From IMG/VR virus record IMGVR_UViG_3300028883_000002: a stretch of 64,000 nt of DNA; one strand, 5' to 3'. Under the pieces are notes generated by a model, which was not told where the DNA came from, did not search any database, and was given only the letters and a program-made list of their open reading frames with translations. The DNA comes from a virus. The first letter of the stretch is position 1, and the number at the start of each line of letters is the position of its first letter. Shown piece after piece: positions 22,744-60,803 of the stretch. The position numbers and the translations under genes were made by a program.

Positions 22744-22959
22744 TAGGGGTGTAAAAAACCCCACGACAAACACTACTAACCTAAATAACCCAACATGGCT
22801 AGTGATGCAAGAGGAAAATGAAGCTAAGCGGAAAAATGTTGTTGGCTGACCAAGGGGCGAAAATAGGACTTGCATGGGGTTGGGCCTCTGACTAGGTTGT
22901 ACCTATGAGGGGTCGGCCTGTGTACCTAGGCCACCTAAGTGGTAACGGGGCAAGGTGTT

Positions 22960-29826: not shown

Positions 29827-30135
29827 ATGAAGGTTATCGAAGTCAATGGAATGCGTTCGAATAACAGGACTGATAGTAAGCTAGTCGGTTGGTGCAATGT
29901 TGTTCTTGCTTGCGGTGATGCTGAGCTTGTGATTACAGGTTGTGCCGTGATTGATGGTAAGAACGGAAAATATGTTGCTATGCCTTCGCGCAAGATTTCG
30001 AAGAAAGATGGAACTGATGAGTGGCGCGATGTGTGTTACATTCGCAACGGCAAGGAGCACAGCGATTCGTTCTCTGACCAAGTGCTTGCTCTTCTAGCTG
30101 ACCAGAAAAAGGAAGATGACGACCTTCCGTTCTAG
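29827..30135 (+). CDS. SpoVG-fold protein with SSB-like acidic C-terminal tip (EDDDLPF)
   Basis: VIDGKNGKYVAMPSRK...DG...RDV aligns with the SpoVG core. The C-terminus mimics the SSB tip DDDIPF. Confidence 0.65.
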   Translation: MKVIEVNGMRSNNRTDSKLVGWCNVVLACGDAELVITGCAVIDGKNGKYVAMPSRKISKKDGTDEWRDVCYIRNGKEHSDSFSDQVLALLADQKKEDDDLPF

Positions 30136-36613: not shown

Positions 36614-36975
36614 TGGGAAAGCTAGAGAACTCAATTAGGACGGCACAGAACTGTAGCGTATGTGCGCACTATTGTGAAATAGAAGAGGGTGGAACAGGAA
36701 GATATATAGGGGTGTGCATGTGGTTTGGAAAGAAGAAGTTGTGTGCTGCTCCTAAAAGGTTAGGCCCAATGGAGGCGCATAATATATTAACTAGTCTATC
36801 CTGCCAGAGGGTATGTGATGATTTTTATCCGAGAAGAACATTTATAGATGATGTAGGGTTACTATATGCTTTCAGGGGAGTAAGATACAGGAAAATAATC
36901 AACGGCAGTCAAGTAACGTTTGTTGAGGAAAAAGTGAAGTGGAGCGAATATGAAGGCGATAGTAGCAAGCTCTGA
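36610..36975 (+). CDS. Cys-rich hypothetical protein
   Basis: ORF track; ATGA overlap. Confidence 0.6.
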   Translation: MMGKLENSIRTAQNCSVCAHYCEIEEGGTGRYIGVCMWFGKKKLCAAPKRLGPMEAHNILTSLSCQRVCDDFYPRRTFIDDVGLLYAFRGVRYRKIINGSQVTFVEEKVKWSEYEGDSSKL

Positions 36976-37453
36976 TTTCAATTCAACCAGAGATTCTACT
37001 GGAATCGCTCATGTGATTTATTTTGCGGGGTGCCCCAGAAATTGTGAAGGTTGCCACAATCCTGCACTTAGACACAGAAGCGGCGGTATTGACGTAGACA
37101 TAGAGAATCTCAAAGTTGAGATATCATCTAACAAACTAGCAACCCATGTGGTCTTTAGTGGCGGCGAACCTTTTGAACAGCCGGAAGCATTAAAAGAACT
37201 CGCAGAGTACGCACAAAAAAGAGGGAAAAAGGTCTGGGTATATACGGGTTACACATTTGAACAATTAGTAGAGGGGCTTGAATGTTGGGAAGAACAACTA
37301 AGGCCAATCAATGTAATAATTGCAGGGCCATTTATCAAGGGTCAGCTTAGAAAAGATTACTCTTTTCTAGCTTCTTCCAACCAACAGGCTTGGACAAGGA
37401 AGGGTTCAACATGGTACAAAACATCAGAAGAAGCCTTACTCGCAGGAGGATAA
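36950..37453 (+). CDS. nrdG: anaerobic ribonucleotide reductase activating protein (radical SAM)
   Basis: CPRNCEGC (CxxxCxxC) and VVFSGGEPF. It lies directly upstream of nrdD. Confidence 0.85.
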   Translation: MKAIVASSDFNSTRDSTGIAHVIYFAGCPRNCEGCHNPALRHRSGGIDVDIENLKVEISSNKLATHVVFSGGEPFEQPEALKELAEYAQKRGKKVWVYTGYTFEQLVEGLECWEEQLRPINVIIAGPFIKGQLRKDYSFLASSNQQAWTRKGSTWYKTSEEALLAGG

Positions 37454-45033: not shown

Positions 45034-45111
45034 GGGAGCGCGGGTCGGCTTTCTTCACCTAACCGGAACGCGACAGGAAGTTCCGACCTTGCGCTCCCCC
45101 CAGATTGGGGG
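45034..45111 (+). promoter_or_regulatory. long stem-loop with alternative pairing to the downstream RBS
   Basis: GGGAGCGCGGGTCGG (45034-45048) pairs with CCGACCTTGCGCTCCC (45083-45098). The CCCCC run at 45096-45100 could instead pair with RBS GGGGG at 45107-45111. Confidence 0.4.
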
Positions 45112-45115
45112 AAGG

Positions 45116-46351
45116 ATGATAAACATATATGCACCATTAAATACTCTTGGCTATGGGGTCCATGCCCTCAACTGGACAGGAGCTTTACACCAACTAGGAG
45201 TTGAATTAGGTTTCAGACCAATAGGCGTAGCGGGTGGGCTTCAAAATTCGTTCTACGTTGATATATTCAATAAGGCAATTGCTAACCATCCTGTAACGGA
45301 TTTTGATGCACCTACTATTGTGCTCTGGCACGAAAACGACCTTGCAAGATATAGAGGAACTCCGCTCATTGGGTACACAGTATTCGAAACTAATCAGTTG
45401 AGAAACAACCATGTTTATGAGCTTTCTCAACTCGATGCAATATGGGTTGTATCACATTGGGCAAAAGAGGTACTGGAGCAATATGACGAATTAAAAGAAA
45501 AAGTCTATGTTGTACCAGAAGGGGTTCACGCGGGTATTTACAAGAGAGAAAAAAGTGAAGAAGACAGGGAACTGCTTCAAGGGTTTTCTGAAGCACTTGA
45601 TGAAATAATAGGAGATAGATATGCTATTGTCTCCCTTGGCAAGTACGAGAAGAGGAAGAACAACGACCTGATTCTCGAATTGATGGATAAGAGATTCAAA
45701 AATGGAATCACGCCAATCTGCCTTTTTGCGTTATGGGACAATCCCTTCATGCCAGATTACGGGCAAAATATAATGGAACACATGGAAGGTATTCACTACT
45801 TCATAGACCAAGAGCTTTCCTCTAAAGCGGGCATTCCTGTATTTAACTCAATAGCTGGCGGACATAGGATTGTTCTCTTTCCTAGGAGGTTGACCGAAAT
45901 ACATCTTGCAGAGATTTATAGAAAGTCAGACCTAGGATTATTCCCCTATAGGTCAGAGGGATGGAACCTTCCTTTGATTGAATGCTTGGCTTGTGGTACT
46001 AGATGTATAGCAACTAACTACTCTGGTCCAACTGAATATCTACCTGATACCGATGCTACACTAATTGAAGATTTTGAAATGGTAACAGCAGATGATGGAA
46101 TGTGGTTCAGGGGTGACGTTGGAACTTGGCCTGAGTTTTCGGCAGAAACACTCTACGAGATTTCCAATCCTATAATCTTAGAAGGAAAGGGGATACGAAA
46201 CAAATGTGCAGAAACAATTGCACAGAAGTGGAGTTGGATAGAAGCGGCAAAGAAATCAATTGAAGCTTTGAATCAGCTTGATATTATGACGTATACGGGC
46301 CACGATGTAGCACAAGTTGTGGAGGATGAGGATGAAACACAGAGTAGCTAA
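45116..46351 (+). CDS. glycosyltransferase, GT-B fold (GT4-like)
   Basis: EGWNLPLIECLACGTRCIATNYSGPTEY matches the GT1/GT4 C-terminal signature. Confidence 0.7.
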   Translation: MINIYAPLNTLGYGVHALNWTGALHQLGVELGFRPIGVAGGLQNSFYVDIFNKAIANHPVTDFDAPTIVLWHENDLARYRGTPLIGYTVFETNQLRNNHVYELSQLDAIWVVSHWAKEVLEQYDELKEKVYVVPEGVHAGIYKREKSEEDRELLQGFSEALDEIIGDRYAIVSLGKYEKRKNNDLILELMDKRFKNGITPICLFALWDNPFMPDYGQNIMEHMEGIHYFIDQELSSKAGIPVFNSIAGGHRIVLFPRRLTEIHLAEIYRKSDLGLFPYRSEGWNLPLIECLACGTRCIATNYSGPTEYLPDTDATLIEDFEMVTADDGMWFRGDVGTWPEFSAETLYEISNPIILEGKGIRNKCAETIAQKWSWIEAAKKSIEALNQLDIMTYTGHDVAQVVEDEDETQSS

Positions 46352-46667: not shown

Positions 46668-47302
46668 AAATTTCCGAAGAGATATCAAACTGCAACAATT
46701 GTCCCTTAGCTAAACAAAACAAGGGCAGAGTTGCTGGTTGGATACCTGACAAGAAACCCAGAAGTATGATAGTTACGGATTATCCAACCATAAAAGAATC
46801 TCAGCTTCAGATTCCTTTAGTTGATGCTGTAGGAGAAAGAGTCAACCCCATACTTAAGGAAGCCGGAATCTCTAAGGATGATTTAGCGATATTGCATTGC
46901 CTCAAATGTTCAACACCGCACGAAAGGTATCCAACGCACCATGAGTCAATAGCCTGTTCGCATATAATCGAACAGGTAAATATCCTTAAGCCAGATGCAA
47001 TATTGCTTATGGGCAAGATTTCGACTAATTTGGTTCTTGGCGTAGATGGATTTGTTGCAGACGTAGACGAGTTGGTAGAAGCTGATGTAATAGAGGCTAA
47101 TAGGCACAAAACTATTTTAGGTTCGTATGGTGAACCGGGACATTTGGTAGCTATACGAATAACATATTCTCCGCACTTTAAACAAGAGATACACAGAGGT
47201 TCACCAGAATCAATAGAAGAAAAGATTAGGGCAGACATAATCGAGTTTGCTAAAATTCACAGAAATGTGCAGGAGATATATGAACAGAAGGAAACTGTAT
47301 AA
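46637..47302 (+). CDS. uracil-DNA glycosylase superfamily (family-4-like) protein
   Basis: CNNCPL...IVTDYP...LVDAVGE...HCLKC is collinear with family 4 UDG, but the GEAPG motif is replaced. Confidence 0.55.
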   Translation: MWEDDRNRLVEISEEISNCNNCPLAKQNKGRVAGWIPDKKPRSMIVTDYPTIKESQLQIPLVDAVGERVNPILKEAGISKDDLAILHCLKCSTPHERYPTHHESIACSHIIEQVNILKPDAILLMGKISTNLVLGVDGFVADVDELVEADVIEANRHKTILGSYGEPGHLVAIRITYSPHFKQEIHRGSPESIEEKIRADIIEFAKIHRNVQEIYEQKETV

Positions 47303-48389
47303 GATAGCTGACGAATACTGGAGGTCACAGTTAAAAAAGTCAGAGAAAGCACGGGAGTATCTTCTGTCAAGAGGCATCATAGAAAGAACTTGGGACAAGT
47401 ATGGGCTAGGATTTGCACCCTCTGATGGAAGAGAGTTATTTGAAATTCTACTTGCAGAGAGTAGCCTCTATGCTATATTAGATAGTGGGCTATTTGTAGT
47501 TGACGGGATTAGGACAAAGGCAAATCTAAGATATCGTATTACATTCCCAATCGTCAAGGATGGGACTACAGAATCTTTTACGGCAAGGTCAATTGACCCA
47601 TCGAATCCTGTCAGATACAAGCACATCAGCGGTTGGCTCAAATGGATATACAACGAAGACCTGTTGTCTTATCCAATTGTAGTAGTAACTGAGGGTCCAC
47701 TAGATGCTCTATCGGTATCTCAGGCAGGGTTCCCTTCGGTTGCTACGTTCGGCACATCAGGAAAGAGATTCGCAGAGAAGTTTGATAAGCAAAGACTAGT
47801 TTACATTGCTTATGATAATGACCAGAAAGAAGACGGTACCAATCCCGGCTTAGACCATGCGATAAAGCTGGGCGTTTCAATAAGAAGGAGCCATAGTATA
47901 CCTGTTCATATTATAGAGATTCCTGCTTTGGAAAAAGCTGGCGCTGACCCAAATGACTTTTTAAGGGCATCAGAAAATCCCAAGAAAGATTTTGCAAAAA
48001 TAGTAAATAAAGCAAAGTCAATCAATAGCTATCCGCAATATTGGGAAATAGTAAGAAACCTAAAAGAACAAGAAACGAGAAAAAAGAGAAGAACTCGGAA
48101 TTCTACAACATTAGATGATTTGAAAGCTATCCCTATAGAAGAGGTAGCTTCAAAATATATAGACGAGTTAACGGTTACTGACAATGCTATATATTGCAGG
48201 TGTCCCTTTCATGAGGATAAAAATCCGTCAATGGCACTTTATCTTGACACGAATACTTTCATTTGTAGGGGAGCAAGCTGCGGCAAGAGGGGAGATGTAA
48301 TCCAGTTTGTTCAATATGCAGACGGAGTATCATTTACAGAAGCATGTAGAAGGCTAAAGGAGGGGTCGTATGGAAGCTCCGAAGATTAG
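47280..48389 (+). CDS. dnaG: DnaG-type primase with the CHC2 zinc finger at the C-terminus
   Basis: N-terminal YLLSRGI...GLGFAP, RITFPI, TOPRIM VVTEGPLDAL...YDNDQ. The C-terminal CPFHEDKNPSM...CRGASCGKRGDVIQF is zf-CHC2-like. Confidence 0.8.
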   Translation: MNRRKLYKIADEYWRSQLKKSEKAREYLLSRGIIERTWDKYGLGFAPSDGRELFEILLAESSLYAILDSGLFVVDGIRTKANLRYRITFPIVKDGTTESFTARSIDPSNPVRYKHISGWLKWIYNEDLLSYPIVVVTEGPLDALSVSQAGFPSVATFGTSGKRFAEKFDKQRLVYIAYDNDQKEDGTNPGLDHAIKLGVSIRRSHSIPVHIIEIPALEKAGADPNDFLRASENPKKDFAKIVNKAKSINSYPQYWEIVRNLKEQETRKKRRTRNSTTLDDLKAIPIEEVASKYIDELTVTDNAIYCRCPFHEDKNPSMALYLDTNTFICRGASCGKRGDVIQFVQYADGVSFTEACRRLKEGSYGSSED

Positions 48390-50205: not shown

Positions 50206-50497
50206 AGGTAAGCAGAATCTTGTAAAGAAACGGGACACCTATAAGTGTATTAGCTGCGATGAGCGTCCCGGCGCAAAGCAGTTAGATGTCTATGAAATAG
50301 AGAATGGCAAAAAAACAAAGATGGCCATTATATGCAAAGCCTGTGCTAAGATGATAATCCAAAATGGAATAGAAGACAGGAACATCGAAGGATATGCCAC
50401 GATGCTAAAAAACAAAGATTTCCTCAGGTGGCTATTGGCCCAACCAGCTAGGAGAAAACCTTGGCATAAAAAGGTTTACGGAAACGGAAAAGACTAA
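50186..50497 (+). CDS. hypothetical protein (TTG start)
   Basis: ORF track. Confidence 0.5.
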   Translation: MKLVRHKGKQNLVKKRDTYKCISCDERPGAKQLDVYEIENGKKTKMAIICKACAKMIIQNGIEDRNIEGYATMLKNKDFLRWLLAQPARRKPWHKKVYGNGKD

Positions 50498-50994
50498 TGA
50501 AAGAATACTATATCTTAACTCCGTTACGCGGCAATAGAATTCTCGTTAAAGACCACGTTGAACGAGAAATGTCAAAGATAAATTTTAAAGACTTCTTGCA
50601 TTACTGCGATGTATACAGCGTATACCCAGAGTATATTTCTATCAAGTGGCTTGATGAAGAAACAAGAAATAATGACGGCCCGGTATACGCCGAAGTAATA
50701 GGAAAAAGAATATACATATACTTTCAGAAAACCAAAACTAGGAAATATCACTATTCTTTTATTCTGTGGATTCTTCTCCACGAACTAAGGCATGTGTATC
50801 AACTTGAAAATGAAGGACTCAAGAAATGCATAGAGTGGTTAGCTAGAAGTAGAGCAAGAGAGTGGACAGAGATAAAGAAAAATGGAAAACCACTAGAAGT
50901 AGATGATTGGCGTTGGTTCATTAGGGAAGATGATGCAAATTGCTTTGCCGCTTCTATAACTGGATACTCTAGGCCCAGAAGGATATACGAATGA
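50497..50994 (+). CDS. hypothetical protein with HExxH (LLHELRH) motif
   Basis: Possible Zn-metallopeptidase motif only. Confidence 0.6.
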   Translation: MKEYYILTPLRGNRILVKDHVEREMSKINFKDFLHYCDVYSVYPEYISIKWLDEETRNNDGPVYAEVIGKRIYIYFQKTKTRKYHYSFILWILLHELRHVYQLENEGLKKCIEWLARSRAREWTEIKKNGKPLEVDDWRWFIREDDANCFAASITGYSRPRRIYE

Positions 50995-51149
50995 CAGATA
51001 ATCTCCCGGTTCAGCTAGATAAAACTACCTGCCCCAACTGCGGCAGAAAACTTAAGGACATAGAAACCAAAGAGGTAGACAAATATTTTGTTTTAGCAAG
51101 ATGCGATAGTTGTTTCTGTGACTTCGTAATTCCGAAAGGCTTACTATGA
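50991..51149 (+). CDS. zinc-ribbon protein, 52 aa (CPNCG...CDSC)
   Basis: Read by eye; ATGA overlaps at both ends. Confidence 0.55.
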   Translation: MTDNLPVQLDKTTCPNCGRKLKDIETKEVDKYFVLARCDSCFCDFVIPKGLL

Positions 51150-53725
51150 AAATTCTCCATGTAGGACAAGCGGCAAGCCTAGCCCAAAAGTATGGCGGAG
51201 CAGAATACACAGATGCTATGATAATGAAAGCTGGAGTAAAGAGAGGGCATCGTGTCCTTTCGGTAAACCATCGTGGAAAAATGACAGACTGGAATACAGG
51301 TAGCACCCAAAAGATAAACCTGTGGAGGATAATTAGTGCTGCTGAAGTTTGTGATGTTGCGATAGTATGCAATATAGAATGGTTTCTTCCAGAAATAATT
51401 GAGAGGTTTGTTGATACTCTAGTTGGTAGAATTCCGTTTGTTTATCATCCACACCACTTTACTCCATGTATGTATACAGGACTGCCGGATACAACAGAAG
51501 GTCTATGTGACAAAATGTGCAAAGGAAAATATTCGTGCCTAGAAGAGTATAGAGGCCTTTTCTATAAGTACATTCTAATGAATGCATCGAAAGTAATTTG
51601 CTTAAGCCCTCTGCATAGAGAAATGTTCATCAAAGCATATGGCGACGAAATAGACTATGGACACTTTGAGTGCTGCCCCCCTGTAATAGGAGAGGAATTT
51701 TGTAATGAAAAACTGGATAGAATACTAGATACCGTTACTGTAGGTGGTGGAACATTTCAAAAAGGCTTCTTGAATCATATAACATGGGCAAAAGAGAATC
51801 CAGACAGAACTCTTAGCGTGTATGGTAAGGTTCAAAAAATCGGAAAACTTCCAGACAACATTGAGTTGTGCGGAACAACTTCTAACGCTTCTCTACCAAG
51901 CATATTAAACATGTATAGGTCTTTCCTATATCTGCCCCAATGGGAAGAACCATACGGGAGAGTGGTGGCAGAAGCCGCTTTGTGCGGCTGCGAAATGATA
52001 GTAGATAAAGATAAAACAGGGGCATATTCCTATTCTACCCCACCAAAAATGCATCAAATTGACCCAGAAACGGGCAATGGATTTTGGAACCACCTAGAAG
52101 CTATAGCTAATACTCGACTTCCAAAACTGTCGTTCGAAGAAGTTGCAAAGAGTAGCAACATAGAATTTAGCAAAGATAGCATAGATTCATGCAAGGTTGG
52201 GATAGTAACCGCTATGTACAACCAAGCTGAATATACCATTAAGTTTCTGGAAAGTCTTGAAAAAAGTAGCATACCACCAAATACTTTTGTTGTAATAGTT
52301 GATGATAATTCCGACCCAGAAGAACTAGAAAAACTGTGCAGCAGCAAAACATACCAAGAAACCAAGCTAAACGTAGAAATACTAAAGCACACCGAAAACG
52401 AAAGCTGCACTAAATCATGGAATGATGGCATCAATATAGTATTCGAAGTTATGCCAGATGTAGAATATATAGTAATAACCAATAATGATGTTATCTTTCC
52501 AAAGGCATGGTTGTACTATTTAGTAAGGGACCAAAGGATATTTGGTGCTGCAATTGTGGGGCCACTGTCAAACCAGCCGGGTTCAAGGCCTTGCCAAGAA
52601 GTGGGCTTGGTGCTTTCAAATTACAAAGAAAGCGATAAGCCAGAAAATATCGAAGAGACACAAGCTAAACTTGCAGCTTTTAATCTACTGCCAAGAAATG
52701 TATCCGCTGTTAACGGATTTTGCATGTTATTTGAAACTAGTGCCTTAAAAAGGCTACAGAAAAACCCCGGCGAATATTTTGATAATAGTATGGTTACCTA
52801 TGGTAGCGATGATGATATCAACAACAGGGCATTTTTAGCAAGAATGGACATAAGGATAAGTAAAACATCTTTTGTATTTCACTACAAAGCTGTTACTGTT
52901 GAGGATAACCCGCTAGAACACCCCGGCTTATTAAGGATTGGAAAAGATATGAGCAAAACAGTAAGGGCAAAAGGAGTGGTGGATAGCTTTAATACCCTAG
53001 TTAAAACCCTTGATAATAACAAGAGAGTGTTCTTTACTAGATTTGGGGATGCCGATATTCTCATGATGTCCGGCAAACAAATGAAGTCTAGCGGTAATCA
53101 AACAACTAACACACCGGACCTGACAGCCGAAATGAAGGAAGCATTTCAAATAGATGACCCAAGATTTCTTAAGGCTACTAGCACATCATATCCAAAAGAG
53201 CCGGGAATGCAGGACGGCCTGTTTGCGCCTTTTCCTTACAATGCAGAACTAGCTGAAATAGTAAAGAGGTATAACACTTCGGACCAAACGCTATTCGAAA
53301 ACCCTGTAATGTTTCACTATCTCGCCGTGTTTTCGCCAGAGGTATTTCTTACATTTCTAGATAAGTACATTAGGCCCAAGAGAAAACTATTCGTGGGGGC
53401 TTGTTCAAAAGAGAACATGGAAAAAATGTTTGGCAAGATAGACTTCTATGTTAACACTCCCTTGCAAAACTCATATGCAACTATGCACCAATGGTATCCT
53501 CAAGTTCTTGATACAGTTGTTAATGATAAAATTGAATTGGTTATCTTAGCAAGCGGTCAAAGTAGCAGAGCATTACAAGCAAGATTGTGGAACATAGCAG
53601 AAACGTATGCTCTTGATTTTCATAGTATTGACATAGGAAGTGTAGTAGATGCAGTAGAGGGTAATTCTACAAGGACTTGGATTAGACTCGCAGGAGATAA
53701 AGTAAGGAGGTTGTTTGATGGTTAA
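51146..53725 (+). CDS. 859-aa multidomain glycosyltransferase (GT4-like + GT2 + GT-D/DUF1792-like)
   Basis: YGRVVAEAALCGCEMIV (GT-B), VGIVTAMYNQ...VIVDDNSD (GT2), FTRFGDADILMM (GT-D-like). Confidence 0.75.
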   Translation: MKILHVGQAASLAQKYGGAEYTDAMIMKAGVKRGHRVLSVNHRGKMTDWNTGSTQKINLWRIISAAEVCDVAIVCNIEWFLPEIIERFVDTLVGRIPFVYHPHHFTPCMYTGLPDTTEGLCDKMCKGKYSCLEEYRGLFYKYILMNASKVICLSPLHREMFIKAYGDEIDYGHFECCPPVIGEEFCNEKLDRILDTVTVGGGTFQKGFLNHITWAKENPDRTLSVYGKVQKIGKLPDNIELCGTTSNASLPSILNMYRSFLYLPQWEEPYGRVVAEAALCGCEMIVDKDKTGAYSYSTPPKMHQIDPETGNGFWNHLEAIANTRLPKLSFEEVAKSSNIEFSKDSIDSCKVGIVTAMYNQAEYTIKFLESLEKSSIPPNTFVVIVDDNSDPEELEKLCSSKTYQETKLNVEILKHTENESCTKSWNDGINIVFEVMPDVEYIVITNNDVIFPKAWLYYLVRDQRIFGAAIVGPLSNQPGSRPCQEVGLVLSNYKESDKPENIEETQAKLAAFNLLPRNVSAVNGFCMLFETSALKRLQKNPGEYFDNSMVTYGSDDDINNRAFLARMDIRISKTSFVFHYKAVTVEDNPLEHPGLLRIGKDMSKTVRAKGVVDSFNTLVKTLDNNKRVFFTRFGDADILMMSGKQMKSSGNQTTNTPDLTAEMKEAFQIDDPRFLKATSTSYPKEPGMQDGLFAPFPYNAELAEIVKRYNTSDQTLFENPVMFHYLAVFSPEVFLTFLDKYIRPKRKLFVGACSKENMEKMFGKIDFYVNTPLQNSYATMHQWYPQVLDTVVNDKIELVILASGQSSRALQARLWNIAETYALDFHSIDIGSVVDAVEGNSTRTWIRLAGDKVRRLFDG

Positions 53726-54002
53726 GACTAGAGCGTGTGACAAATGCGGGGCAAAAGATAAAGAGCTTAATTGGGTGCATTCCAAATGGCTATGTGCAGA
53801 TTGCGCAGAGAGCAAGGAAGAAACACCTGGCGCAGTTGAAGATTTGAATGAGCTTGACAGGATTATTGAAGAGGGAGAAAAAGAAAATGGGGGAACAGAA
53901 AGTAACAGCGGTAATTCTGAACTGGAAGAGGCCACAGAACATACCGAAGATAATAGAAAGCCTTTTGCCCCATTCCTTCATAGACGAGATAGTGATTCAT
54001 GA
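53718..54002 (+). CDS. zinc-ribbon protein with acidic tail
   Basis: CDKCG...CADC; GGAGG RBS. The 3' end overlaps the next gene by 116 nt. Confidence 0.5.
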   Translation: MVKTRACDKCGAKDKELNWVHSKWLCADCAESKEETPGAVEDLNELDRIIEEGEKENGGTESNSGNSELEEATEHTEDNRKPFAPFLHRRDSDS

Positions 54003-54498
54003 TAATTCAAAGGGCAACAATATAATTAATTACGGTAGATATCTTCACGGAACCCACGACCTGATATATACCCAAGATGATGATTGCATTGTTCATGGCA
54101 TTGAAAACCTATATGCCTCTTTTGTTACAGCGCCAGATAGAATTTCATATGGTGGAACGGAAGGATTACATAACGTAGACCAGCAAAATATTCGCGGTTC
54201 CGCCAAGATGTGTATGGCAGGATGGGGAAGTATGTTCAGTCGCTCTTGGATTTCTGTGTTAGATAAATATATAGAGAGATATGGTATGGACACTTGTTTC
54301 TTTAGGGAGACAGACAGAATTTTTTCTCTATTGCTAAACAAACACCATAATCTTGTTAAAACAGTTAGGATAGAACATCTTGAAGGGGCAGTCGACAAAA
54401 ATGCCCTCGCACTTGAGGCAGACCATTGGAAATCGAAAGCCAAGGCTATTGACCGAGCACTTGGAATTTTGAAGGAGGAAGGAACGTGGTCCTCTTAG
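53887..54498 (+). CDS. GT2-like glycosyltransferase
   Basis: VTAVILNWKRPQN...IVIHDNS...QDDDC. Confidence 0.65.
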   Translation: MGEQKVTAVILNWKRPQNIPKIIESLLPHSFIDEIVIHDNSKGNNIINYGRYLHGTHDLIYTQDDDCIVHGIENLYASFVTAPDRISYGGTEGLHNVDQQNIRGSAKMCMAGWGSMFSRSWISVLDKYIERYGMDTCFFRETDRIFSLLLNKHHNLVKTVRIEHLEGAVDKNALALEADHWKSKAKAIDRALGILKEEGTWSS

Positions 54499-55043
54499 CT
54501 CCTCATAACGATGATGAGGTTCTGTTTGCTTCTGGTATATTAGAAGAGTTTAGGCCAACGGTTGTAATTGTGACGGATGCAATTAGACATTCTGAAAGAT
54601 TAGGCAATCCAGATTTCTGGCTTACCAGAAGAATGGAAAGCTGCAAGGCTGTTCAGATGTACGACTTGCCAATCATCTTCCTTGGTATTCCAGATACAGA
54701 ACTCAATGCAACTAGATTCTGGAACAGAATGAGATTGAGGGTTCCTTGGGGAACGCTAATTGCACCGGATTGGTATTCTGCTAATGAAGACCATAATCTA
54801 ATAGGGGAAACGATTTACAAAAACTGTCCGCTGTCTTTCTTTTATCCTACCTATACGAAAGAACTAGAAACTAAGCCAACGCTTAAAGTAGAAATAGAAT
54901 ATAAGCCTGAAGGGGAACATCGCCAAAAGAAGATTCAAGCTCTTGAGTGTTATGAAACTCAATGGAGAATGAACAAAGCACATTTCGAAGCAGCATTGAA
55001 ACAATCTGAGTATCTGTGCAGGGCTGATATCAAAGATGAATGA
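54486..55043 (+). CDS. PIG-L/LmbE-family deacetylase
   Basis: LAPHNDDEVLF signature; GTG start behind AAGGAGG. Confidence 0.7.
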   Translation: MVLLAPHNDDEVLFASGILEEFRPTVVIVTDAIRHSERLGNPDFWLTRRMESCKAVQMYDLPIIFLGIPDTELNATRFWNRMRLRVPWGTLIAPDWYSANEDHNLIGETIYKNCPLSFFYPTYTKELETKPTLKVEIEYKPEGEHRQKKIQALECYETQWRMNKAHFEAALKQSEYLCRADIKDE

Positions 55044-55614
55044 GAAGGATAAAGCGCACAGAATAGAACTTCTGAATACCTTTCCAAAAAACTCAATTGG
55101 AGCAGAGATAGGTGTGTGGAAAGGTGAAATGTCGGGTTTAATTCTTGAAGTTGTACAGCCAAATATGTTGTACTTAATTGATGTATGGGAATTCGACTTA
55201 CCGAAAGGGTTTGGTCAATTGCCAGAAGGATATGGAGCCAAGAACGCAAAGAAAAACCAAAAAGCAATTGATGAAATCTATATACGAGTATGCTCAAAGT
55301 TTCTCGATAAAAATAATGTAACCATAACCAAAGGATTCTCAAAAGATGTAGCAAAAACACTTGAGGATGAATCTCTGGATTGGGTTTACATAGATGCTAA
55401 CCACGAATATTTTGGCGTGTTAGAAGACTTGACAGAATACTATCCCAAAGTAAAACCGGGAGGAATTGTTTCGGGCCATGATTGGACCTATCCAATAAAA
55501 GAAAAGAGAAATCCTGTACAAGATGCTATAAGAGATTTTTGGTCTTATACAGATGTAAACTTAAGTCAACCAGAACTATTCGGTACAAACTGGAAAATGA
55601 TAAAGGAGAAATAA
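55036..55614 (+). CDS. class I SAM-dependent methyltransferase (Methyltransf_24/TylF-like)
   Basis: GAEIGVWKGEMS...DWVYIDANHEY...PGGIVSGHDW. Confidence 0.7.
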   Translation: MNEKDKAHRIELLNTFPKNSIGAEIGVWKGEMSGLILEVVQPNMLYLIDVWEFDLPKGFGQLPEGYGAKNAKKNQKAIDEIYIRVCSKFLDKNNVTITKGFSKDVAKTLEDESLDWVYIDANHEYFGVLEDLTEYYPKVKPGGIVSGHDWTYPIKEKRNPVQDAIRDFWSYTDVNLSQPELFGTNWKMIKEK

Positions 55615-55850
55615 TGGATGTACTGAAAGAGCTAGGAGCAGAAGACAAGTGGGAAGCGGGAATCCTGTTCATAGACAAGGACGAATCAGTTAAGCCAATT
55701 CATAACAATAAAACCGTTCACTTAGCAATTGTAGATTTCTATGGCAGACCTTCTTGGGTTAAGCTAAGTGATGGCGACCTTATCATAGTTGTTAGGAAAG
55801 GAGATTACAATCTTGACTCCATACGAGCAAGCCAAACGAAATCTGATTGA
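55614..55850 (+). CDS. hypothetical protein
   Basis: TAATG overlap; GGAGAA RBS. Confidence 0.55.
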   Translation: MDVLKELGAEDKWEAGILFIDKDESVKPIHNNKTVHLAIVDFYGRPSWVKLSDGDLIIVVRKGDYNLDSIRASQTKSD

Positions 55851-56379
55851 TTTTTCATCAATCCTAGCTACTCATAAAGTTCCATTCTGCCTGATGGATG
55901 GAACCCTATTGGGGGCATGCAGAGAGAAGGACTTCATAAAGGGTGACGAGAAAGATATTGATACTGCCATTCTAGATTATCATTATGATGTATTTGTCGC
56001 CCAGCTTCTGCCCAAGCTGAGAGAGATTGGTTTTAATGATATTAGGATATACTCAGTAGACGGAACGGTTGAAGGAGTGGCAATGTTCCGTGGTAACAAC
56101 CACATTGATGTAATGCGAATACATATCAAAAACGATTATGCATACAATCTTGCCAAAAGCTTCGGAAGATTTAGGCAACCACATATTGCTTTCAAATATC
56201 CCGTTGAGTGCTTTAGGGAATTTGACGAGATTGAATTCTTAGGAGCTACATACAATACTCCGCATGACCCAGAGAGATATTTAGAAGTAAGGTATGCAGA
56301 TTGGAAAACTCCAGTTGCCCAGAAGGACTACGACTACTTTGACCAAAAACAGGTTCCCTGTCTAAGCTTGGAGTGGTAA
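55813..56379 (+). CDS. licD: LicD-family phosphotransferase (TTG start, uncertain)
   Basis: [29 protein letters not shown] matches the LicD signature. Confidence 0.75.
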
Positions 56380-56380
56380 A

Positions 56381-57736
56381 ATGTCGCACGACTCTACGGT
56401 ATACGTCGGAATGGCAGCAGATGTTCTTCATGCAGGACACATAAACATCTTGCGAACAGCAGCGGGATACGGAAGAATAATTGTGGGGCTGTTAAGTGAT
56501 GAAGCTATCGCAAGTTACAAACGCATCCCCTTGATGAATTTTCATCAAAGGCAGGAAGTGGTTAGCAACATTTCAGGCGTGAATGAAGTCATTATTCAGA
56601 AAACACTAGACTATACAGACAACCTGAAGCGGTTAAAACCCGATTATGTTGTTCATGGTGACGATTGGAAAGATGGACCACAGAAGGGAACAAGAGAAAA
56701 AGTAATAGAGTGCCTCAGAGAGTGGGGCGGTAAGTTAATTGAAGTTCCGTATACCAAGGGAATTTCTTCAACTGAGGTAATCAATAGAATCAGAGGAGAA
56801 GGAATATCTCCTGACAAACGCAGGGAATTACTCAGAGATATAATGAGCAAGAAACCTCTCTGTAGATTCATCGAAGCACACAATGGACTAAGTGCTTTGG
56901 TAGCAGAGAATGCTGAATATACAGACGGAGAAATTCGCAGGGAGTTTGATGGTATCTGGGTTGGGAGTTTAGCTCTCTCCACTTCAAAAGGCAAGCCAGA
57001 TACAGGAGTAGTTGACTTCTCTGAGCGATACAAGGCAATCGAAGAAATCATGGAGGTTACTACGAAGCCGATAATCGTAGACGGAGATTCTGGCGGTTCG
57101 TATGACAACTTTGGACACAAGGTCAGAACGCTTGAGCGGCTTGGTGTATCGGGTATCATAATAGAGGACAAGATAGGCGTTAAAAGGAACTCGCTTTTCC
57201 AAGAGGGGGAAGCTGTTCCTCAAACGCAAGACACGATAGAAAACTTCTCAAAGAAAATTCGCGCAGGAGTTCAGGCTCTACTGGACCGCAGGAGCTTCAT
57301 GATAATCGCTAGAATAGAATCTCTTGTGCTAGGCGGTACGGTAGAAGACGCCCTAGAAAGAGCGCAATGGTATTTGAACTCTGGCGCAAGTGCGATAATG
57401 ATACACAGTAAAGATAGGGAAATCGGGAAGTTACTAGATTTTTGCGAAAAATACAATGAAAAAATCTACCTATTGGGCGGACCTTATGAAACTCCGCAGA
57501 AAACAAGAATGCCGCTCGTCATGGTTCCTACTGCTTATGACCATATCAGAGAAGAGGAACTAAAACGATGGGGAGCTAATGTTGTTATATATGCAAACCA
57601 ACTAGTACGAAGTGCTTATCCTGCAATGCTAAGAACAGCAAATCAGATACTAAGGGACCAACAGGCAGAAAGAGCCTGTAACGAAAACTGTATGTCAGTA
57701 AAAGAGTTGCTCACTTTAATACCGGAGGACTATTAA
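56381..57736 (+). CDS. pepM: cytidylyltransferase-phosphoenolpyruvate mutase fusion (PntC-PepM type)
   Basis: N-terminal [11 protein letters not shown] (HxGH). C-terminal [16 protein letters not shown] and the PepM-diagnostic [10 protein letters not shown]. Confidence 0.9.
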
Positions 57737-58824
57737 TGTACACAAAGGTTCCACAGTTGGAAAAGGGGTATGCAGATTGGAAAGATGCTCTTTGCGACAT
57801 ATGGAGAAGCCACTCCTGCTTCCAAAGTCCGCTGTATGTGGTTTCCGAAGGTAGCATGAAGAGACTCAAGCTTGGGCCGTTTGCAAGCGAGAACTGGATT
57901 TGGGTTGACTCAAGCGAAAGGGACATGAGGAAGGTATCAAAATTCTATCTTAAAAGAACGCTCGACTTAGATTTTGATACCGTAATTGCAATAGGTGGCG
58001 GATTTACACTAGACGTAGCTAAGTTGATTCTTGCCAGTAAGTGTTTTGATACCTGTTCGGCAGAAGTTATCAAAGACAGAGAAGATATAATCTACAGATA
58101 TTGCCCGTCAATATTCATTCCCACTACTTGTGGGTCTGGTAGTGAAGCTACTCCATATGCAACTGTGTGGGATTTACACAACAAGAGGAAGTTCTCTATT
58201 AGAAGCGAAGATTTAGTTCCAAACTATGCGATACTTGATTCGCATCTTCTTTTGTCTATGCCCCAACAGGTAGCGCACAGTTCAATGATGGATGCAATAG
58301 CACATTGTATTGACTCGTTCTTGAGCGTTAAAAGAACGGAGCAATCCCAGCTATTCGCAAGAGAAGCTCTAAGCGCAATTGTTCCAAAGCTTAATGCAAA
58401 CGACCATACCTACAGAGATGTTCTAGACCTGATGGTAGGAGCATATTACGCAGGAAGAGCAATTGCAATCAGCGAGACTTCTTTGTGCCATGCACTTAGT
58501 TATCCGTTAACACTTCATTATGGGATACCGCACGGTATCGCATGTGGAATGATGTTAGCTACGGCGATAGATTGCCATGCTGCTCTCGATAAATATCTGG
58601 AAAGAATCGTATCTAGAGGAGAATTGAGTTCTAGAATTCTGCTACATTTTGAGGTAATGTTGAAGAAGTGGAATGCATTCCTCAGGGACGAAAATCCAGA
58701 TATTAATTTCCTAGCTAATTGCGCCAGTAATGAGAGGATGAGTAACTACAGCTATATTGACCCAAGAAATGAAAGCGAAGTTTTTGAGGCGGCAAAGGAC
58801 TTTTACAAAAGGGTCTTACGATGA
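57736..58824 (+). CDS. iron-containing alcohol dehydrogenase (candidate phosphonoacetaldehyde reductase)
   Basis: IGGGFTLDVAK, TTCGSGSEATP, MMDAIAHC, CHALSYPLTLHYGIPHG. Confidence 0.8.
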   Translation: MYTKVPQLEKGYADWKDALCDIWRSHSCFQSPLYVVSEGSMKRLKLGPFASENWIWVDSSERDMRKVSKFYLKRTLDLDFDTVIAIGGGFTLDVAKLILASKCFDTCSAEVIKDREDIIYRYCPSIFIPTTCGSGSEATPYATVWDLHNKRKFSIRSEDLVPNYAILDSHLLLSMPQQVAHSSMMDAIAHCIDSFLSVKRTEQSQLFAREALSAIVPKLNANDHTYRDVLDLMVGAYYAGRAIAISETSLCHALSYPLTLHYGIPHGIACGMMLATAIDCHAALDKYLERIVSRGELSSRILLHFEVMLKKWNAFLRDENPDINFLANCASNERMSNYSYIDPRNESEVFEAAKDFYKRVLR

Positions 58825-59225
58825 GAGTTAAAGACCTGTACCATCACGCAAGATATCAATTGGGAATCTCGTTTTTCACAGGCGTACCAGACAGTTTACT
58901 CTCTCCCTTTCTGAAAGAATTAGACAAGGAGATAAGAGAAGGAGGTACATCAACAAAGCACATAATTGCCGCTCACGAATCTCAAGCGGTAGGTATTGCA
59001 GTTGGAGCAATGTTGGCTGGCAGTAACGCGGCTGTATATACCCAGAATTCGGGAGTAGGGAATTTGGTCAATCCGATAGCTAGTCTGTGTTTGCCGTATA
59101 ACTTGCAACCTTGGATAATCATAGGCCACAGGGAAGGGCTACCCCAGCACAGGGTAATGGCAAAGATAGATGATGATATCATGCAGCTTCTAGGTTATAA
59201 AAAGTACCTACTGGTGAAGGAGTAG
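58821..59225 (+). CDS. ppd: phosphonopyruvate decarboxylase, N-terminal (pyrimidine-binding) subunit
   Basis: FFTGVPDSLL...AAHESQAVGIAVGA... ThDP-enzyme N-domain pattern. It lies next to pepM. Confidence 0.75.
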   Translation: MRVKDLYHHARYQLGISFFTGVPDSLLSPFLKELDKEIREGGTSTKHIIAAHESQAVGIAVGAMLAGSNAAVYTQNSGVGNLVNPIASLCLPYNLQPWIIIGHREGLPQHRVMAKIDDDIMQLLGYKKYLLVKE

Positions 59226-59228
59226 AAA

Positions 59229-59723
59229 ATGCCTATGTCGCTAGATGTTGCGCTTTCGTTTATTTTCCTGAAACACATGAAAGAGAGCATAAAGGACGAC
59301 ATAATCTATGTGGTCAGCACAGGCTATCTTTCAAGAGCGGTATACCGAATGCATCCCAAGTGGAAAAACGTTTTCTACATGCAAGGAAGTATGGGACTTG
59401 CTCCTGCCATTGGGCTGGGTATGGCGCTAAAAACAAAGAAGAAGGTTGTTGTCATAACGGGCGATGCAGCACTTCTGATGCACTTGGGAATTACCCATAC
59501 GATTAGGGATGCCGACCTAGACAACCTTTTTGTGTACGTCATTAAAAACGGTTGCCATGAATCTACTGGTGGGCAACCGTGTTCCGAAGTTAAACTGCAT
59601 TATCCCGGTGTTACTGAAGTGCTGAAAGTTGACCCCTTAATTCCACCTAGGATTGATATGAGCTTCAATAAGATTACTGAAAACGTTAAGGATTCGCTAA
59701 ATGCGCTTAAACAAAAAGCTTAA
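59229..59723 (+). CDS. ppd: phosphonopyruvate decarboxylase, C-terminal (diphosphate-binding) subunit
   Basis: GSMGLAPAIGLG...ITGDAALLMHLG...NGCHESTGGQ ThDP motif. Confidence 0.75.
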   Translation: MPMSLDVALSFIFLKHMKESIKDDIIYVVSTGYLSRAVYRMHPKWKNVFYMQGSMGLAPAIGLGMALKTKKKVVVITGDAALLMHLGITHTIRDADLDNLFVYVIKNGCHESTGGQPCSEVKLHYPGVTEVLKVDPLIPPRIDMSFNKITENVKDSLNALKQKA

Positions 59724-60021
59724 GTATCTGTGGTTACCGATTAGGAAAAAGGTTCACCAACAGATAGAACACAAGAAGATGGAAAAGCTAGGACTCACAG
59801 AGAAGTTCCTAGCTATTTCAGCCGTGGTCCAATTCCTAACTACAGAACTGGACCAGATAGAACTAAGAGAGAGCGAATACAAGAAGCTCTTCTTTCATGG
59901 CTGTAGGTACATACTCAGGAACTCAGATATCAATATTCCTAAAGTACCTAAGTTCCTGAGGGGGTTTGTTATTAACCGCATAATCAATGCGGTTTATGAC
60001 TTTACCAAAAAGAACCAATAG
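59701..60021 (+). CDS. hypothetical protein
   Basis: ORF track. This is the last + strand gene. Confidence 0.45.
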   Translation: MRLNKKLKYLWLPIRKKVHQQIEHKKMEKLGLTEKFLAISAVVQFLTTELDQIELRESEYKKLFFHGCRYILRNSDINIPKVPKFLRGFVINRIINAVYDFTKKNQ

Positions 60022-60043: not shown

Positions 60044-60598
60044 TTAGTCGTATTCGTATATAGGGTGGGTCTCAAACCATGCCTCTAGACCTCCATAGAG
60101 GGCCGTAGCGACCCTATCGGGCCATGTTGGGTGCTGGATATGCACCGCATCCTGAAGGTTCGTTAGGAAGCCCCCTTCGACGATTACGGCGGGAATCTGT
60201 AGGGCTTCAGCGTCCTTTAAGACCTTGAGTCCAGACCGCCTCTTAAGGCCTCGCCAAGGTAAGCCAAGCTCGTCCTTTAAAGGCCCCTCTAGGGCCTCTG
60301 CAAGCTTCTTAGATGCCTCCCCGCAGTATAGAAGCTCTCCCCCCCTGGCAGACGAATCTGTGAATGCATTATGGTGGAGAGATATCATTATATCTGGTTT
60401 CCATAATTTGTACATTTCTGCACGATTGCCTAATTGTTCAGCACACACAATCATGCAATCGTAATCTTTATCAGCAAGTCGCATCATTAGAGCGGCAGAA
60501 CAATATGCATTTTCTTTGAATTCGTCTACTCCGTTTGCAGATGCACCTGTACCTATTCCGTGGTGTCCGCACAGAATAGCGATTCGCTTGTTTCGCAT
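60044..60598 (-). CDS. N-acetylmuramoyl-L-alanine amidase (Amidase_3) endolysin
   Basis: ILCGHHGIGTGA...DIMISLHHNA...GGELLY. ORF track trimmed to the ATG behind GGGAGAA. Confidence 0.8.
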   Translation of the reverse strand: MRNKRIAILCGHHGIGTGASANGVDEFKENAYCSAALMMRLADKDYDCMIVCAEQLGNRAEMYKLWKPDIMISLHHNAFTDSSARGGELLYCGEASKKLAEALEGPLKDELGLPWRGLKRRSGLKVLKDAEALQIPAVIVEGGFLTNLQDAVHIQHPTWPDRVATALYGGLEAWFETHPIYEYD

Positions 60599-60599
60599 C

Positions 60600-60803
60600 T
60601 TATTCTCCCGGCGAAGTATCGCCTTCATCTTCGACAACAATGACAATATCTTTGCCCACGAACTCAGAAAGCTTGTCCACGACATCATAAGAGTGATTCA
60701 CCTCGTTGTTTTCGTCTACGAGAAATATAGCTAGCGGAAAATCTCCATCGCCTTCTCTTCTCTTTTCGCGTATTACTCTACCTTTGAAAATAATCTTTTT
60801 CAT
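60600..60803 (-). CDS. hypothetical acidic protein
   Basis: ORF track; GGAGGAAAAA RBS. Confidence 0.6.
   Translation of the reverse strand: MKKIIFKGRVIREKRREGDGDFPLAIFLVDENNEVNHSYDVVDKLSEFVGKDIVIVVEDEGDTSPGE

Follow-up and report, generated by a model that had tools for sequence, protein, structure and literature searches.

The 64,000-nt stretch of DNA analysed here (the window; IMG/VR virus record IMGVR_UViG_3300028883_000002) carries at positions 51146-59723 one tightly packed operon of 11-12 genes, which probably directs the synthesis of 2-hydroxyethylphosphonate (HEP) activated with cytidine monophosphate (CMP) and its transfer by a LicD-type enzyme onto a glycan. Taken as a whole, our best explanation is a phosphonoglycan operon resident in a phage genome, with HEP as the phosphonate, assembly in the cytoplasm and the phage's own virion proteins as the acceptor; we give this complete account about an even chance of being correct.

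All open reading frames (ORFs) in the span lie on the plus strand and overlap or nearly abut, with gaps of -116 to +3 nt. An earlier sequence-only reading of the window had placed thirteen consecutive genes at these coordinates. The cluster was found there, but it holds 11 ORFs, and 13 are reached only if the preceding 52-aa and the following 106-aa ORFs are counted. The hidden Markov model searches that this reading had called for were run and bore out nearly every assignment. The PIG-L deacetylase, the S-adenosylmethionine (SAM) methyltransferase, the LicD phosphotransferase, the fusion of a cytidylyltransferase with a phosphoenolpyruvate (PEP) mutase and the iron-dependent alcohol dehydrogenase (Fe-ADH) all gave Pfam or NCBIfam matches, that of PIG-L slightly under its cut-off. 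The motif EDKxxxxxNS, named there as diagnostic of PEP mutase (PepM, or Ppm), is present in the translation of the fusion protein, and the two ORFs read as phosphonopyruvate decarboxylase (Ppd) subunits match the N- and C-terminal parts of TIGR03297. The proposal that the phage builds a glycan and decorates it through LicD with a CMP-activated phosphonate gained support from the equivalog-level PepM score, the Fom1-like cytidylyltransferase domain, the FKRP-like model of LicD and the recurrence of the module in other genomes.

Phosphonate synthesis and transfer

The genes assigned to the phosphonate pathway and to the transfer step are listed below.

55813-56379, plus strand: LicD/FKRP-fold phosphotransferase, 188 aa; PF04991 31 bits (cut-off 22.6)
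56381-57736, plus strand: bifunctional Fom1-type protein, 451 aa, cytidylyltransferase (residues 1-140) followed by PEP mutase (residues 150-450); PF01467 58.1 bits, PF13714 165.7 bits
57736-58824, plus strand: Fe-ADH, 362 aa; PF00465 73 bits and PF25137 54 bits, both above cut-off
58821-59225, plus strand: alpha-like Ppd subunit, 134 aa, with the N domain of thiamine pyrophosphate (TPP) enzymes; TIGR03297 positions 1-122, 95.0 bits; PF02776 25.6 bits (cut-off 26.8)
59229-59723, plus strand: beta-like Ppd subunit, 164 aa, with the TPP-binding C domain; TIGR03297 positions 178-293, 95.7 bits; PF02775 40.9 bits

In the 451-aa protein, the PF13714 (PEP_mutase) match covered the full profile (positions 2-240) and exceeded the cut-off of 31.5 bits. 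Against TIGR02320 the protein scored 325.8 bits, which passes the equivalog cut-off of 319.55, and the next family, phosphonopyruvate hydrolase, reached 120 bits. The EDKxxxxxNS motif separates Ppm from isocitrate lyase-like enzymes (PMC6697681, PMC8942020). The mutase domain also matched the PEP mutase structures 1M1B (E 1e-34) and 5UNC, with E values from 1e-34 to 2e-30. N-terminal of this domain, the PF01467 match spanned residues 14-136, and the cytidylyltransferase (CyTase) domain aligned with PDB entry 5X3D at an E value of 1.8e-50 (175 bits), with 79 of 131 residues identical (60%). The PDB label of this 160-aa entry reads only 'Phosphoenolpyruvate phosphomutase'; we take it to be the CyTase domain of Fom1.

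The best NCBIfam model for the Fe-ADH was TIGR03405 (Phn_Fe-ADH, of phosphonate clusters), with 166 bits against an equivalog cut-off of 423.7 and 102 bits for the next family. Its translation shows Asp/His metal-ligand motifs, and the enzyme is a probable phosphonoacetaldehyde reductase of the PhpC/FomC kind. For both Ppd subunits TIGR03297 was the best family, although each score, and also their sum, fell below the single-chain cut-off of 312.5; the sulfopyruvate decarboxylase models scored lower, at 60 and 86 bits. The beta-like subunit carries the TPP motif GDAALLMHLG...NGCHESTGGQ, and both genes lie in the PepM operon, 1 kb from PepM itself. A split Ppd pair (47-61% identity; 47-55% given for the alpha-like subunit) follows PepM in most of 29 PepM loci found in IMG/VR, and the Fe-ADH gene is linked to CTase/PepM and both Ppd subunits in 24 of them.

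The LicD gene lies directly upstream of the fusion gene, with a gap of 1 nt, and its product is the likely consumer of CMP-HEP. The PF04991 match aligned only profile positions 4-49, and the motif GTLLGA.R..DF..D..D.D was invariant in 8 homologues. An AlphaFold (AF2) model of the protein reached a pLDDT of 95.4, and its 12 best PDB matches in Foldseek were all FKRP, among them 6KAK, 6KAL and 6KAM, with CMP and cytidine diphosphate (CDP)-ribitol complexes included (E 1.4e-7 to 9e-7; query TM-score, TMq, 0.58-0.62). FKRP is a CDP-ribitol phosphotransferase that adds ribitol phosphate to a glycan. The module of LicD, CTase/PepM, Ppd and Fe-ADH recurs in a bacterial locus (L064), in the phage-like contigs L027 and L032 and in the IMG/VR contig L022, and in all of these LicD adjoins PepM.

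On this evidence, the mutase domain is predicted to convert PEP to phosphonopyruvate. The split TPP decarboxylase would then make phosphonoacetaldehyde, thereby drawing the unfavourable equilibrium of the first step forward, and the Fe-ADH would turn phosphonoacetaldehyde into HEP. The Fom1-type CyTase domain would combine HEP with cytidine triphosphate to give CMP-HEP. In the fifth step, predicted from its modelled fold, the LicD/FKRP-fold enzyme would move the 2-hydroxyethylphosphonyl group from the CMP conjugate to a sugar hydroxyl, with CMP as the leaving group. The first four steps rest on the established enzymology of the matched families, and the fifth is our inference.

The activated product is most likely CMP-HEP, with HEP rather than 2-aminoethylphosphonate (AEP), because an Fe-ADH is present, an aminotransferase is absent and the CyTase domain shares 60% identity with its Fom1 counterpart. 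Annotation of the window genes showed no aminotransferase, aldolase or aldehyde dehydrogenase. According to Li & Horsman, the combination of Ppm, Ppd and Fe-ADH marks the HEP class (PMC8942020), and the cluster is placed in this class because it holds these three and no other branch-point enzyme. Fom1 is the characterised HEP cytidylyltransferase (PMC6697681). Two other products were considered and rejected from the window annotations, namely AEP, whose defining enzymes are absent, and methylphosphonate, for which dioxygenases of the HEPD/MpnS type are absent. Some points weigh against the assignment as HEP. Fusions of PF01467 with Ppm occur in AEP-type clusters too (PMC8942020), which bears on the HEP specificity of the CyTase domain. 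The Fe-ADH and the Ppd subunits scored below NCBIfam equivalog cut-offs, and PIG-L and TPP_enzyme_N slightly below those of Pfam. Function, product and acceptor alike are read from homology and context.

Glycan-building genes and candidate acceptors

The 5' part of the operon encodes the following glycan enzymes.

51146-53725, plus strand: three-domain glycosyltransferase (GT), 859 aa; about residues 1-330 GT-B (GT4-like, sub-threshold), 353-532 GT-A (GT2), about 600-859 GT-D (DUF1792)
53887-54498, plus strand: GT-A-fold glycosyltransferase, 203 aa; signature R...DDD...G...D invariant; EXTL2 closest
54486-55043, plus strand: PIG-L/LmbE-type de-N-acetylase, 185 aa; PF02585 26.5 bits at residues 3-79 (cut-off 28.2)
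55036-55614, plus strand: class-I SAM methyltransferase (Methyltransf_24/TylF-like), 192 aa; PF13578 63.4 bits, PF05711 28.5 bits

The 859-aa protein, which the sequence-only reading had described as a glycosyltransferase of three domains, was resolved into GT-B, GT-A and GT-D modules on the basis of sub-threshold GT-B matches, a GT2 match and DUF1792/PF08759 relatives. Its N-terminal third gave weak Glyco_transf_4 and Glycos_transf_1 matches in the correct order and contains an ExxxxxxxE motif (EPYGRVVAE), and its GT-A part matched Glycos_transf_2 with 39.9-43 bits. The C-terminal 260 aa had no direct Pfam match even at E<=5; PF08759 is found in five of seven homologues of this part (36-43% identity), and one homologue bears the NCBI name 'GT-D fold' glycosyltransferase. 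A profile of the domain had as its three best PDB matches the DUF1792 structures 4PFX, 4PHR and 5V4A (E 0.003-0.013), aligned on RFGD(G/A)(E/D).

The 203-aa protein had been called a GT2. It is indeed a glycosyltransferase with a GT-A fold, but the protein itself gave no Pfam match, and its start was moved to 53887, which is backed by homology, since matches begin about 34 residues into the homologues. An exhaustive HMMER search returned 293 homologues at E<=1e-3, either stand-alone proteins of about 200 aa or modules of giant glycosyltransferase/methyltransferase proteins. In Foldseek, the AlphaFold model (pLDDT 96.7) matched EXTL2 best (E 2e-6, TMq 0.69), with WrtF, TarP and hyaluronan synthases ranking next. 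EXTL2 is labelled an alpha-1,4-N-acetylhexosaminyltransferase in the PDB, and this likeness fits the de-N-acetylase gene that overlaps the 3' end of the GT-A gene. The PIG-L protein carries an AHxDDE-type motif, seen as LAPHNDDE in the translation. In the PDB, the 192-aa methyltransferase weakly matched NovP and MycF, two sugar O-methyltransferases, and it is probably one itself; it also matched phrog_2675, labelled 'DNA methyltransferase'. The acceptor glycan would be a short hetero-oligosaccharide made by at least four soluble GT domains (the GT-B, GT-A and GT-D modules of the 859-aa protein and the EXTL2-like GT-A). The PIG-L enzyme would remove the N-acetyl group from an N-acetylhexosamine of this chain, and the TylF-like methyltransferase would O-methylate a sugar.

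None of the 12 operon proteins contains a hydrophobic 19-mer of transmembrane strength, and the operon encodes no flippase, polymerase, initiating phosphoglycosyl transferase or exporter. Because these are absent, glycan assembly, as far as the gene content tells, must be cytoplasmic. We favour the phage's own virion proteins as acceptor over precursors of the host envelope, at slightly short of even confidence, and more tentatively suggest that the particles are coated, on capsid, tail or fibre proteins, with an O-methylated, partly de-N-acetylated glycan bearing HEP esters. This preference draws on the precedent of phage virion glycosylation, on related cassettes near structural genes, on the combination of GT folds and on the number of GT domains. 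In mycobacteriophages it is established that phage enzymes glycosylate capsid and tail-tube subunits (Freeman 2023, cited in PMC12619734). In contig L062 (SRR6811659_13811), tape-measure and tail genes are followed by Mannosyl_trans3, GT2, GT-D, Methyltransf_24 and GT2 genes, and in contig L063 (ENA ERZ28669879 ctg34867, 1-20591) an SU10-type major capsid gene is followed by CTP_transf_like, two LicD-like genes, a GT2-methyltransferase fusion, GT2, Methyltransf_24 and DegT; both contigs are without PepM. They suggest a wider family of phage glycan-decoration cassettes beside structural genes. The solved GT-D structures include the DUF1792 domain of a protein deposited as 'GalT1'. GalT1 extends a protein O-glycan. 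Serine-rich adhesins are O-glycosylated by the combination of GT-B, GT-A and GT-D, and it was in that system that the DUF1792 domain was characterised. The presence of at least four GT domains would also suggest that a glycan is built de novo, instead of a host unit being decorated.

Several observations speak against a virion acceptor. The operon runs in the direction of the replication genes and not of the late genes, the neighbouring 2592-aa tail protein contains no Ser/Thr-rich tracts, and the capsid gene and most structural genes lie outside the 64-kb window. To our knowledge, the characterised bacterial LicD enzymes all act on envelope polymers.

This last point leads to the strongest competing explanation, in which the same chemistry is directed at a lipid-linked teichoic-acid, capsule or O-antigen precursor of the host at the cytoplasmic face of the membrane, for export by the host. 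The consequences would be superinfection exclusion, sparing of progeny from adsorption to debris, or masking of receptors. Characterised LicD enzymes decorate teichoic acid and lipopolysaccharide, phosphonyl tailoring of this logic has been proposed for cell surfaces (PMC6697681), the bacterial homologous module is accompanied by an ABC exporter and two TagF-like glycerophosphotransferases, and insertions of licD and ispD-family genes in Flandersviridae phages were interpreted in the same way (PMC8008677). The location in the replication block is likewise compatible with early or middle expression. However, no membrane protein, initiating transferase, flippase or exporter is encoded among the 12 genes, and the number of GT domains points to a glycan made de novo and not to decorating a unit that the host already has. 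The window annotations contain neither an integrase nor a lysogeny module, so that serotype conversion of the prophage type is unlikely. Overall, we regard an envelope acceptor as less likely, though a serious competitor.

A free small molecule made independently of the glycan genes, such as a fosfomycin-like antibiotic, methylphosphonate or a phosphorus store, is very improbable. CTase-PepM, Ppd and Fe-ADH do correspond to the first three enzymes of Streptomyces fosfomycin synthesis (Fom1, Fom2 and FomC), where CMP-HEP is an intermediate (PMC6697681). However, the window annotations contain no Fom3-type radical-SAM/B12 methyltransferase, HppE/Fom4 epoxidase, HEPD/MpnS-type dioxygenase, CMP-hydrolase or resistance kinase, and the sole radical-SAM protein is the NrdG-like activase beside NrdD. 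A fosfomycin cluster as such was rejected, because neither Fom3 nor Fom4/HppE occurs among the Pfam annotations of all window genes. In addition, translational coupling ties LicD to the pathway, the genes for the glycan overlap each other, and the association of LicD, PIG-L, methyltransferase and GT2 with PepM is repeated in L027.

Hypermodification of DNA, in which a phosphonate glycan on a modified pyrimidine would serve restriction evasion, is very improbable. The operon follows the replication module, and an additional GT-B gene (45089-46351) lies between a DUF5049 gene and the genes for a protein resembling uracil-DNA glycosylase (UDG) and a primase. Some phage glycosyltransferases are known to attach di- and trisaccharides to DNA (Pyle 2024, cited in PMC12619734), the methyltransferase has its phrog_2675 match, and in Vibrio phage Va2 genes for a PepM-like and a TPP-binding protein are interleaved with those for ribonucleotide reductase. 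Against this, Pfam annotation of the 64-kb window, including NrdD, NrdG and dCMP deaminase, revealed no thymidylate-synthase-like hydroxymethylase, dNMP kinase, deazaguanine or other base-modifying genes. LicD/FKRP enzymes use sugar acceptors, and the methyltransferase resembles the sugar O-methyltransferases TylF and NovP.

Known counterparts and distribution

The enzyme families and the logic of the pathway, Fom1/Fom2/FomC followed by transfer of the Lic/Pnt type, are known; what is new is the carrier and the combination. The early pathway of fosfomycin in Streptomyces shares with the operon the CyTase-PepM fusion (Fom1), Ppd (Fom2), the Fe-ADH (FomC) and the cytidylylation of HEP (PMC6697681). 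In contrast, the phage has no Fom3, Fom4, FomD or FomA/B, its Ppd is split into two short subunits, the genes are phage-borne, and CMP-HEP is predicted to be the donor for LicD and not a transient intermediate. The bacterial cell-surface pathways of the Pnt and Lic types follow the same plan of making a head group, activating it with CMP and transferring it to a glycan by a LicD-type enzyme (PMC6697681). The characterised Pnt enzymes, however, are PntC proteins of PF12804 acting on AEP, whereas the phage has a PF01467 domain and the HEP branch point.

The homologous bacterial cassette (L064/L065; JGI 3300008625 Ga0115653_1000541, 6868-15746) encodes an ABC exporter, a 396-aa LicD, CTase-PepM, a fused Ppd, an Fe-ADH and two TagF-like glycerophosphotransferases. 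It is of Bacteroidota type, with Por_Secre_tail neighbours, and the identical PepM protein occurs in 59 blocks of the contig collection (24 contigs read); it is a common, apparently uncharacterised, HEP-teichoic-acid-like locus. LicD, CTase/PepM, Ppd and Fe-ADH are adjacent in both systems. The exporter, the TagF-like polymerases, the longer LicD and the fused Ppd set the bacterial cassette apart from the phage, which has no membrane or export part, a minimal 188-aa LicD and a split Ppd. The phage cassette is likely a HEP-type phosphonoglycan set stripped of its membrane components and resident in a tailed phage.

Glycans of Glycomyces and Stackebrandtia are the only isolated glycans reported with HEP (Yu et al. 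2014, cited in PMC8942020 and PMC13576164). HEP is also the product class predicted for the phage, but those glycans are actinobacterial exopolysaccharides, whereas the glycan of the phage is predicted from its genes. Among viruses, a metagenomic contig of a nucleocytoplasmic large DNA virus (gene cluster family GCF 881) with a PepM-Ppd core and sugar-modifying genes was read as encoding a viral phosphonoglycan (Li & Horsman 2022, PMC8942020). It belongs to a giant virus of eukaryotes and has a Ppm-Ppd fusion and an AEP transaminase, in contrast to the tailed phage, HEP type and LicD found here. Some 'Flandersviridae' gut phages carry licD and ispD-family genes inserted in the replication module (Benler 2021, PMC8008677). 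These resemble the present case in placing LicD and a nucleotidyltransferase among replication genes, but they are two-gene insertions without head-group biosynthesis, PepM or glycosyltransferases, and their function is a published guess. Virion glycosylation in mycobacteriophages offers a further likeness, since capsid and tail subunits are there modified in the cytoplasm by soluble glycosyltransferases of the phage (cited in PMC12619734). No phosphonate or LicD is reported for that system, and the present operon lies outside the structural module. Contigs L062 and L063 share with the operon the GT-D, GT2, Methyltransf_24 and LicD/CTP-transferase families, with methyltransferases beside glycosyltransferases, and have them beside tail or capsid genes. 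In mycobacteriophages, too, methyltransferases accompany glycosyltransferases.

No description of a phosphonate pathway in a bacteriophage was found in the literature searched. Ppm was absent from RefSeq viruses and from 364 huge phages, and a single giant-virus AEP contig was highlighted as 'a virus-encoded phosphonate' (Li & Horsman 2022, PMC8942020). PHROGs v4 has no family for the PEP mutase domain, either Ppd subunit, LicD, the 859-aa glycosyltransferase or the 203-aa GT-A. When the cluster and 22 kb of core genes were compared by megablast with 50,697 GenBank phage records, nothing matched, and in a tblastn search of the same records PepM was found at full length only in two short unannotated faecal contigs, with a partial match in Vibrio phage Va2. 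In IMG/VR, an alignment-based scan found 29 contigs with a PepM bearing the diagnostic motif, mostly followed by a split Ppd and an Fe-ADH; a single-protein scan had given none. For most of these contigs the viral status is that of a candidate, and several of the large ones resemble sugar-nucleotide/TagF islands.

The functional set is repeated in L027 (IMGVR_UViG_3300032070_000632), an unrelated phage-like contig of 77 kb. Its locus at 800-19600 contains genes for a DnaB helicase, a PD-(D/E)XK nuclease, UDP-glucose dehydrogenase, GT2, a methyltransferase, LicD, PepM, a fused Ppd, Fe-ADH, an FkbM methyltransferase, PIG-L, two further GT2 and a phrog_2170 glycosyltransferase, the last of these 5 kb from the phosphonate genes. 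The L027 PepM has the motif EDKAFPKRNS, and no CyTase domain was detected in it.

Vibrio phage Va2 (L047, MW073017), an isolate from Vibrio alginolyticus, carries an annotated PEP mutase with the motif VVEDKNPSAKINS. This motif, EDKx6NS, is one residue longer than the diagnostic EDKx5NS, and the protein is 31% identical to the mutase core of the window. A 367-aa TPP-binding protein is encoded near the PEP mutase, and both genes (109638-110942, 104837-105937) are interleaved with those for ribonucleotide reductase subunits. Va2 may hold a second, unremarked phage phosphonate pathway.

Decoration of glycans with phosphonates is a poorly understood surface chemistry; its presumed benefit is protection from hydrolases, grazers and phages (PMC8931226, PMC8942020). 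The operon turns this picture round, with the virus itself investing in carbon-phosphorus chemistry, from formation of the C-P bond through CMP activation to the transferase and the glycan enzymes. If functional, it would be a new kind of auxiliary or virion-modifying pathway and would offer glyco-engineering a compact set of soluble enzymes, independent of membranes, that make CMP-HEP and transfer it; a viral input to the environmental phosphonate pool would also become testable. If the virion is indeed coated, this would be the first phosphonylated virus particle, with a charged, phosphatase-resistant glycan, and phages, including the PepM-bearing viral contigs of IMG/VR, would be a direct biological source of glycan-bound HEP.

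Genomic setting and residence of the operon

The window corresponds to bases ~8914-72913 of a 121,748-bp ENA contig (ERZ27252208 k141_1967269), and by its hallmark genes (DnaB, a DnaE-type polymerase, NrdD/NrdG, a primase and 5 tRNAs) it is clearly read as phage. The operon forms the 3' end of a long co-directional plus-strand block of replication and nucleotide-metabolism genes. The neighbouring genes and the small ORFs of the operon are listed below.

28447-29811, plus-strand block: DnaB-like helicase
31240-34431, plus-strand block: DnaE-type polymerase
Also in the plus-strand block: PD-(D/E)XK nuclease, RuvC, NrdG, NrdD and dCMP deaminase
45089-46351, plus strand: upstream GT-B glycosyltransferase, 411-420 aa; PF00534 39.3 bits, PF13692 36.2 bits; phrog_2170 'glycosyltransferase' E 8e-23
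47280-48389, plus-strand block: UDG-like protein and primase
53718-54002, plus strand: Cys-rich (CxxC...CxxC) Zn-ribbon-like ORF with an acidic tail, 94 aa; read from the translation and called in other assemblies
55614-55850, plus strand: small ORF, 78 aa, without family match
59701-60021, plus strand: basic ORF, 106 aa, overlapping the beta-like Ppd gene by 23 nt; last gene of the plus-strand block
60044-60601, minus strand: N-acetylmuramoyl-L-alanine amidase (endolysin, Amidase_3); PF01520 89.5 bits; convergent, 22 nt past the end of the operon block
60813-64000, minus strand: tail-fibre-like protein, C-terminal 1049 aa of 2592 aa; local matches to tail fibre and tail protein PHROGs; the gene runs past the window end

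The upstream GT-B gene is possibly part of the same glycan pathway; the UDG-like gene, the primase gene and seven small ORFs lie between it and the operon. On the other side, the endolysin and then the giant tail-fibre-like protein, both on the minus strand, agree with the earlier placement of the cluster beside lysis and tail-fibre genes. The 2592-aa protein is complete in assemblies L055/L056 (11993-20405) and is followed there by a second giant protein (at least 1877 aa) that faintly matches the GLEYA adhesin domain.

Both borders of the operon were reproduced in other assemblies. The junction from the replication genes to the 859-aa GT gene recurs in ERZ27252236, SRR8554445 and SRR8554434, and the junction from Ppd through the 106-aa ORF and the endolysin to the tail protein recurs in ERZ27252236, SRR8554434, SRR8554445 and JGI 3300031111. 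The five junction-spanning assemblies, which come from at least four samples, match the window at 99.9-100% identity. Several independent assemblies (L051, L052, L057 and L058) end at the same spot, window ~52437-52504, inside the 859-aa GT gene. A variable cassette within this gene, where three other assemblies break, was considered and rejected, since the ends are remnants of Nextera adapter and both flanks are identical to the window; the contig ends of L052 and L057 carry the adapter sequence CTGTCTCTTATACACATCT. We read the breaks as a library artefact and not as a variable region.

Codon usage of the cluster correlated with that of 12 core genes at r = 0.95, compared with r = 0.92 of core with core, and the GC content was 0.410 against 0.415; the bacterial homologous module reached a codon-usage correlation of only 0.66-0.74. 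The nearest cellular CTase-PepM proteins are common in bacterial metagenome-assembled genomes (MAGs) and are only 55-57% identical. The operon is thus a long-resident, ameliorated part of the phage genome. The prospect that bacterial DNA was mis-joined to phage DNA, which the sequence-only reading had named as able to overturn it, or was captured from a host so recently that it has no phage role, might be suggested by a metagenomic contig and by the frequency of such proteins in bacterial MAGs, but it is negligible, because the junctions recur in independent assemblies, the breaks in the GT gene have their adapter explanation, codon usage and GC content are indistinguishable from those of core genes and the best cellular PepM is distant.

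A promoter and terminator scan of 44-61 kb performed no better than on shuffled sequence and is silent on timing and on operon borders. No close phage relatives were found in a primase-based IMG/VR scan, which returned zinc-finger motif matches only. Comparison of the DnaE-type polymerase with GTDB genomes gave no clue to the host, with matches only to cellular DnaE of many phyla at 32-36% identity, and the endolysin matches (about 30%, mostly Bacillus phages) are too weak for host assignment. The phage also encodes a SpoVG homologue (29827-30135) and a RuvB-like AAA+ protein (22939-23886). Taken with the Amidase_3 endolysin, they hint faintly at a Bacillota host, too little for an assignment.

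For the seven small upstream ORFs, the Zn-ribbon ORF and the 78-, 106- and 67-aa ORFs, PHROGs and Pfam gave no usable family matches. The final 116 nt of the Zn-ribbon ORF overlap the GT-A gene in a different frame; the two may truly overlap, or translation may not extend into the acidic tail of the ORF, and we treat the Zn-ribbon ORF as a putative gene. In assemblies L057 and L058, the 78-aa ORF has an in-frame tandem duplication of 87 bp (55680-55766), seen by blastn and inspection, which lengthens it to 107 aa; this is a length polymorphism within the phage population. The 67-aa ORF between the endolysin and the 2592-aa protein is acidic and non-hydrophobic, and no holin is evident there.

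Directly upstream of the operon, a 165-aa ORF (50497-50994) has an HExxH motif (HELRH) without a family match and may be a small metalloprotease-like protein. The phage further encodes an RNA-maintenance set (8272-9675, 14695-20115 and 24242-25819), which comprises an enzyme of the CCA-adding/poly(A) polymerase family, five tRNA genes (two Leu, Lys, Met and Glu) and a TROVE (Ro60-like) RNA-binding protein. The NrdD activase lies at 36950-37453, and the anaerobic ribonucleotide reductase points to an anoxic habitat. NrdD itself (927 aa, 37454-40237) showed faint intein-splicing and LAGLIDADG matches between two NRDD segments and may contain an intein.

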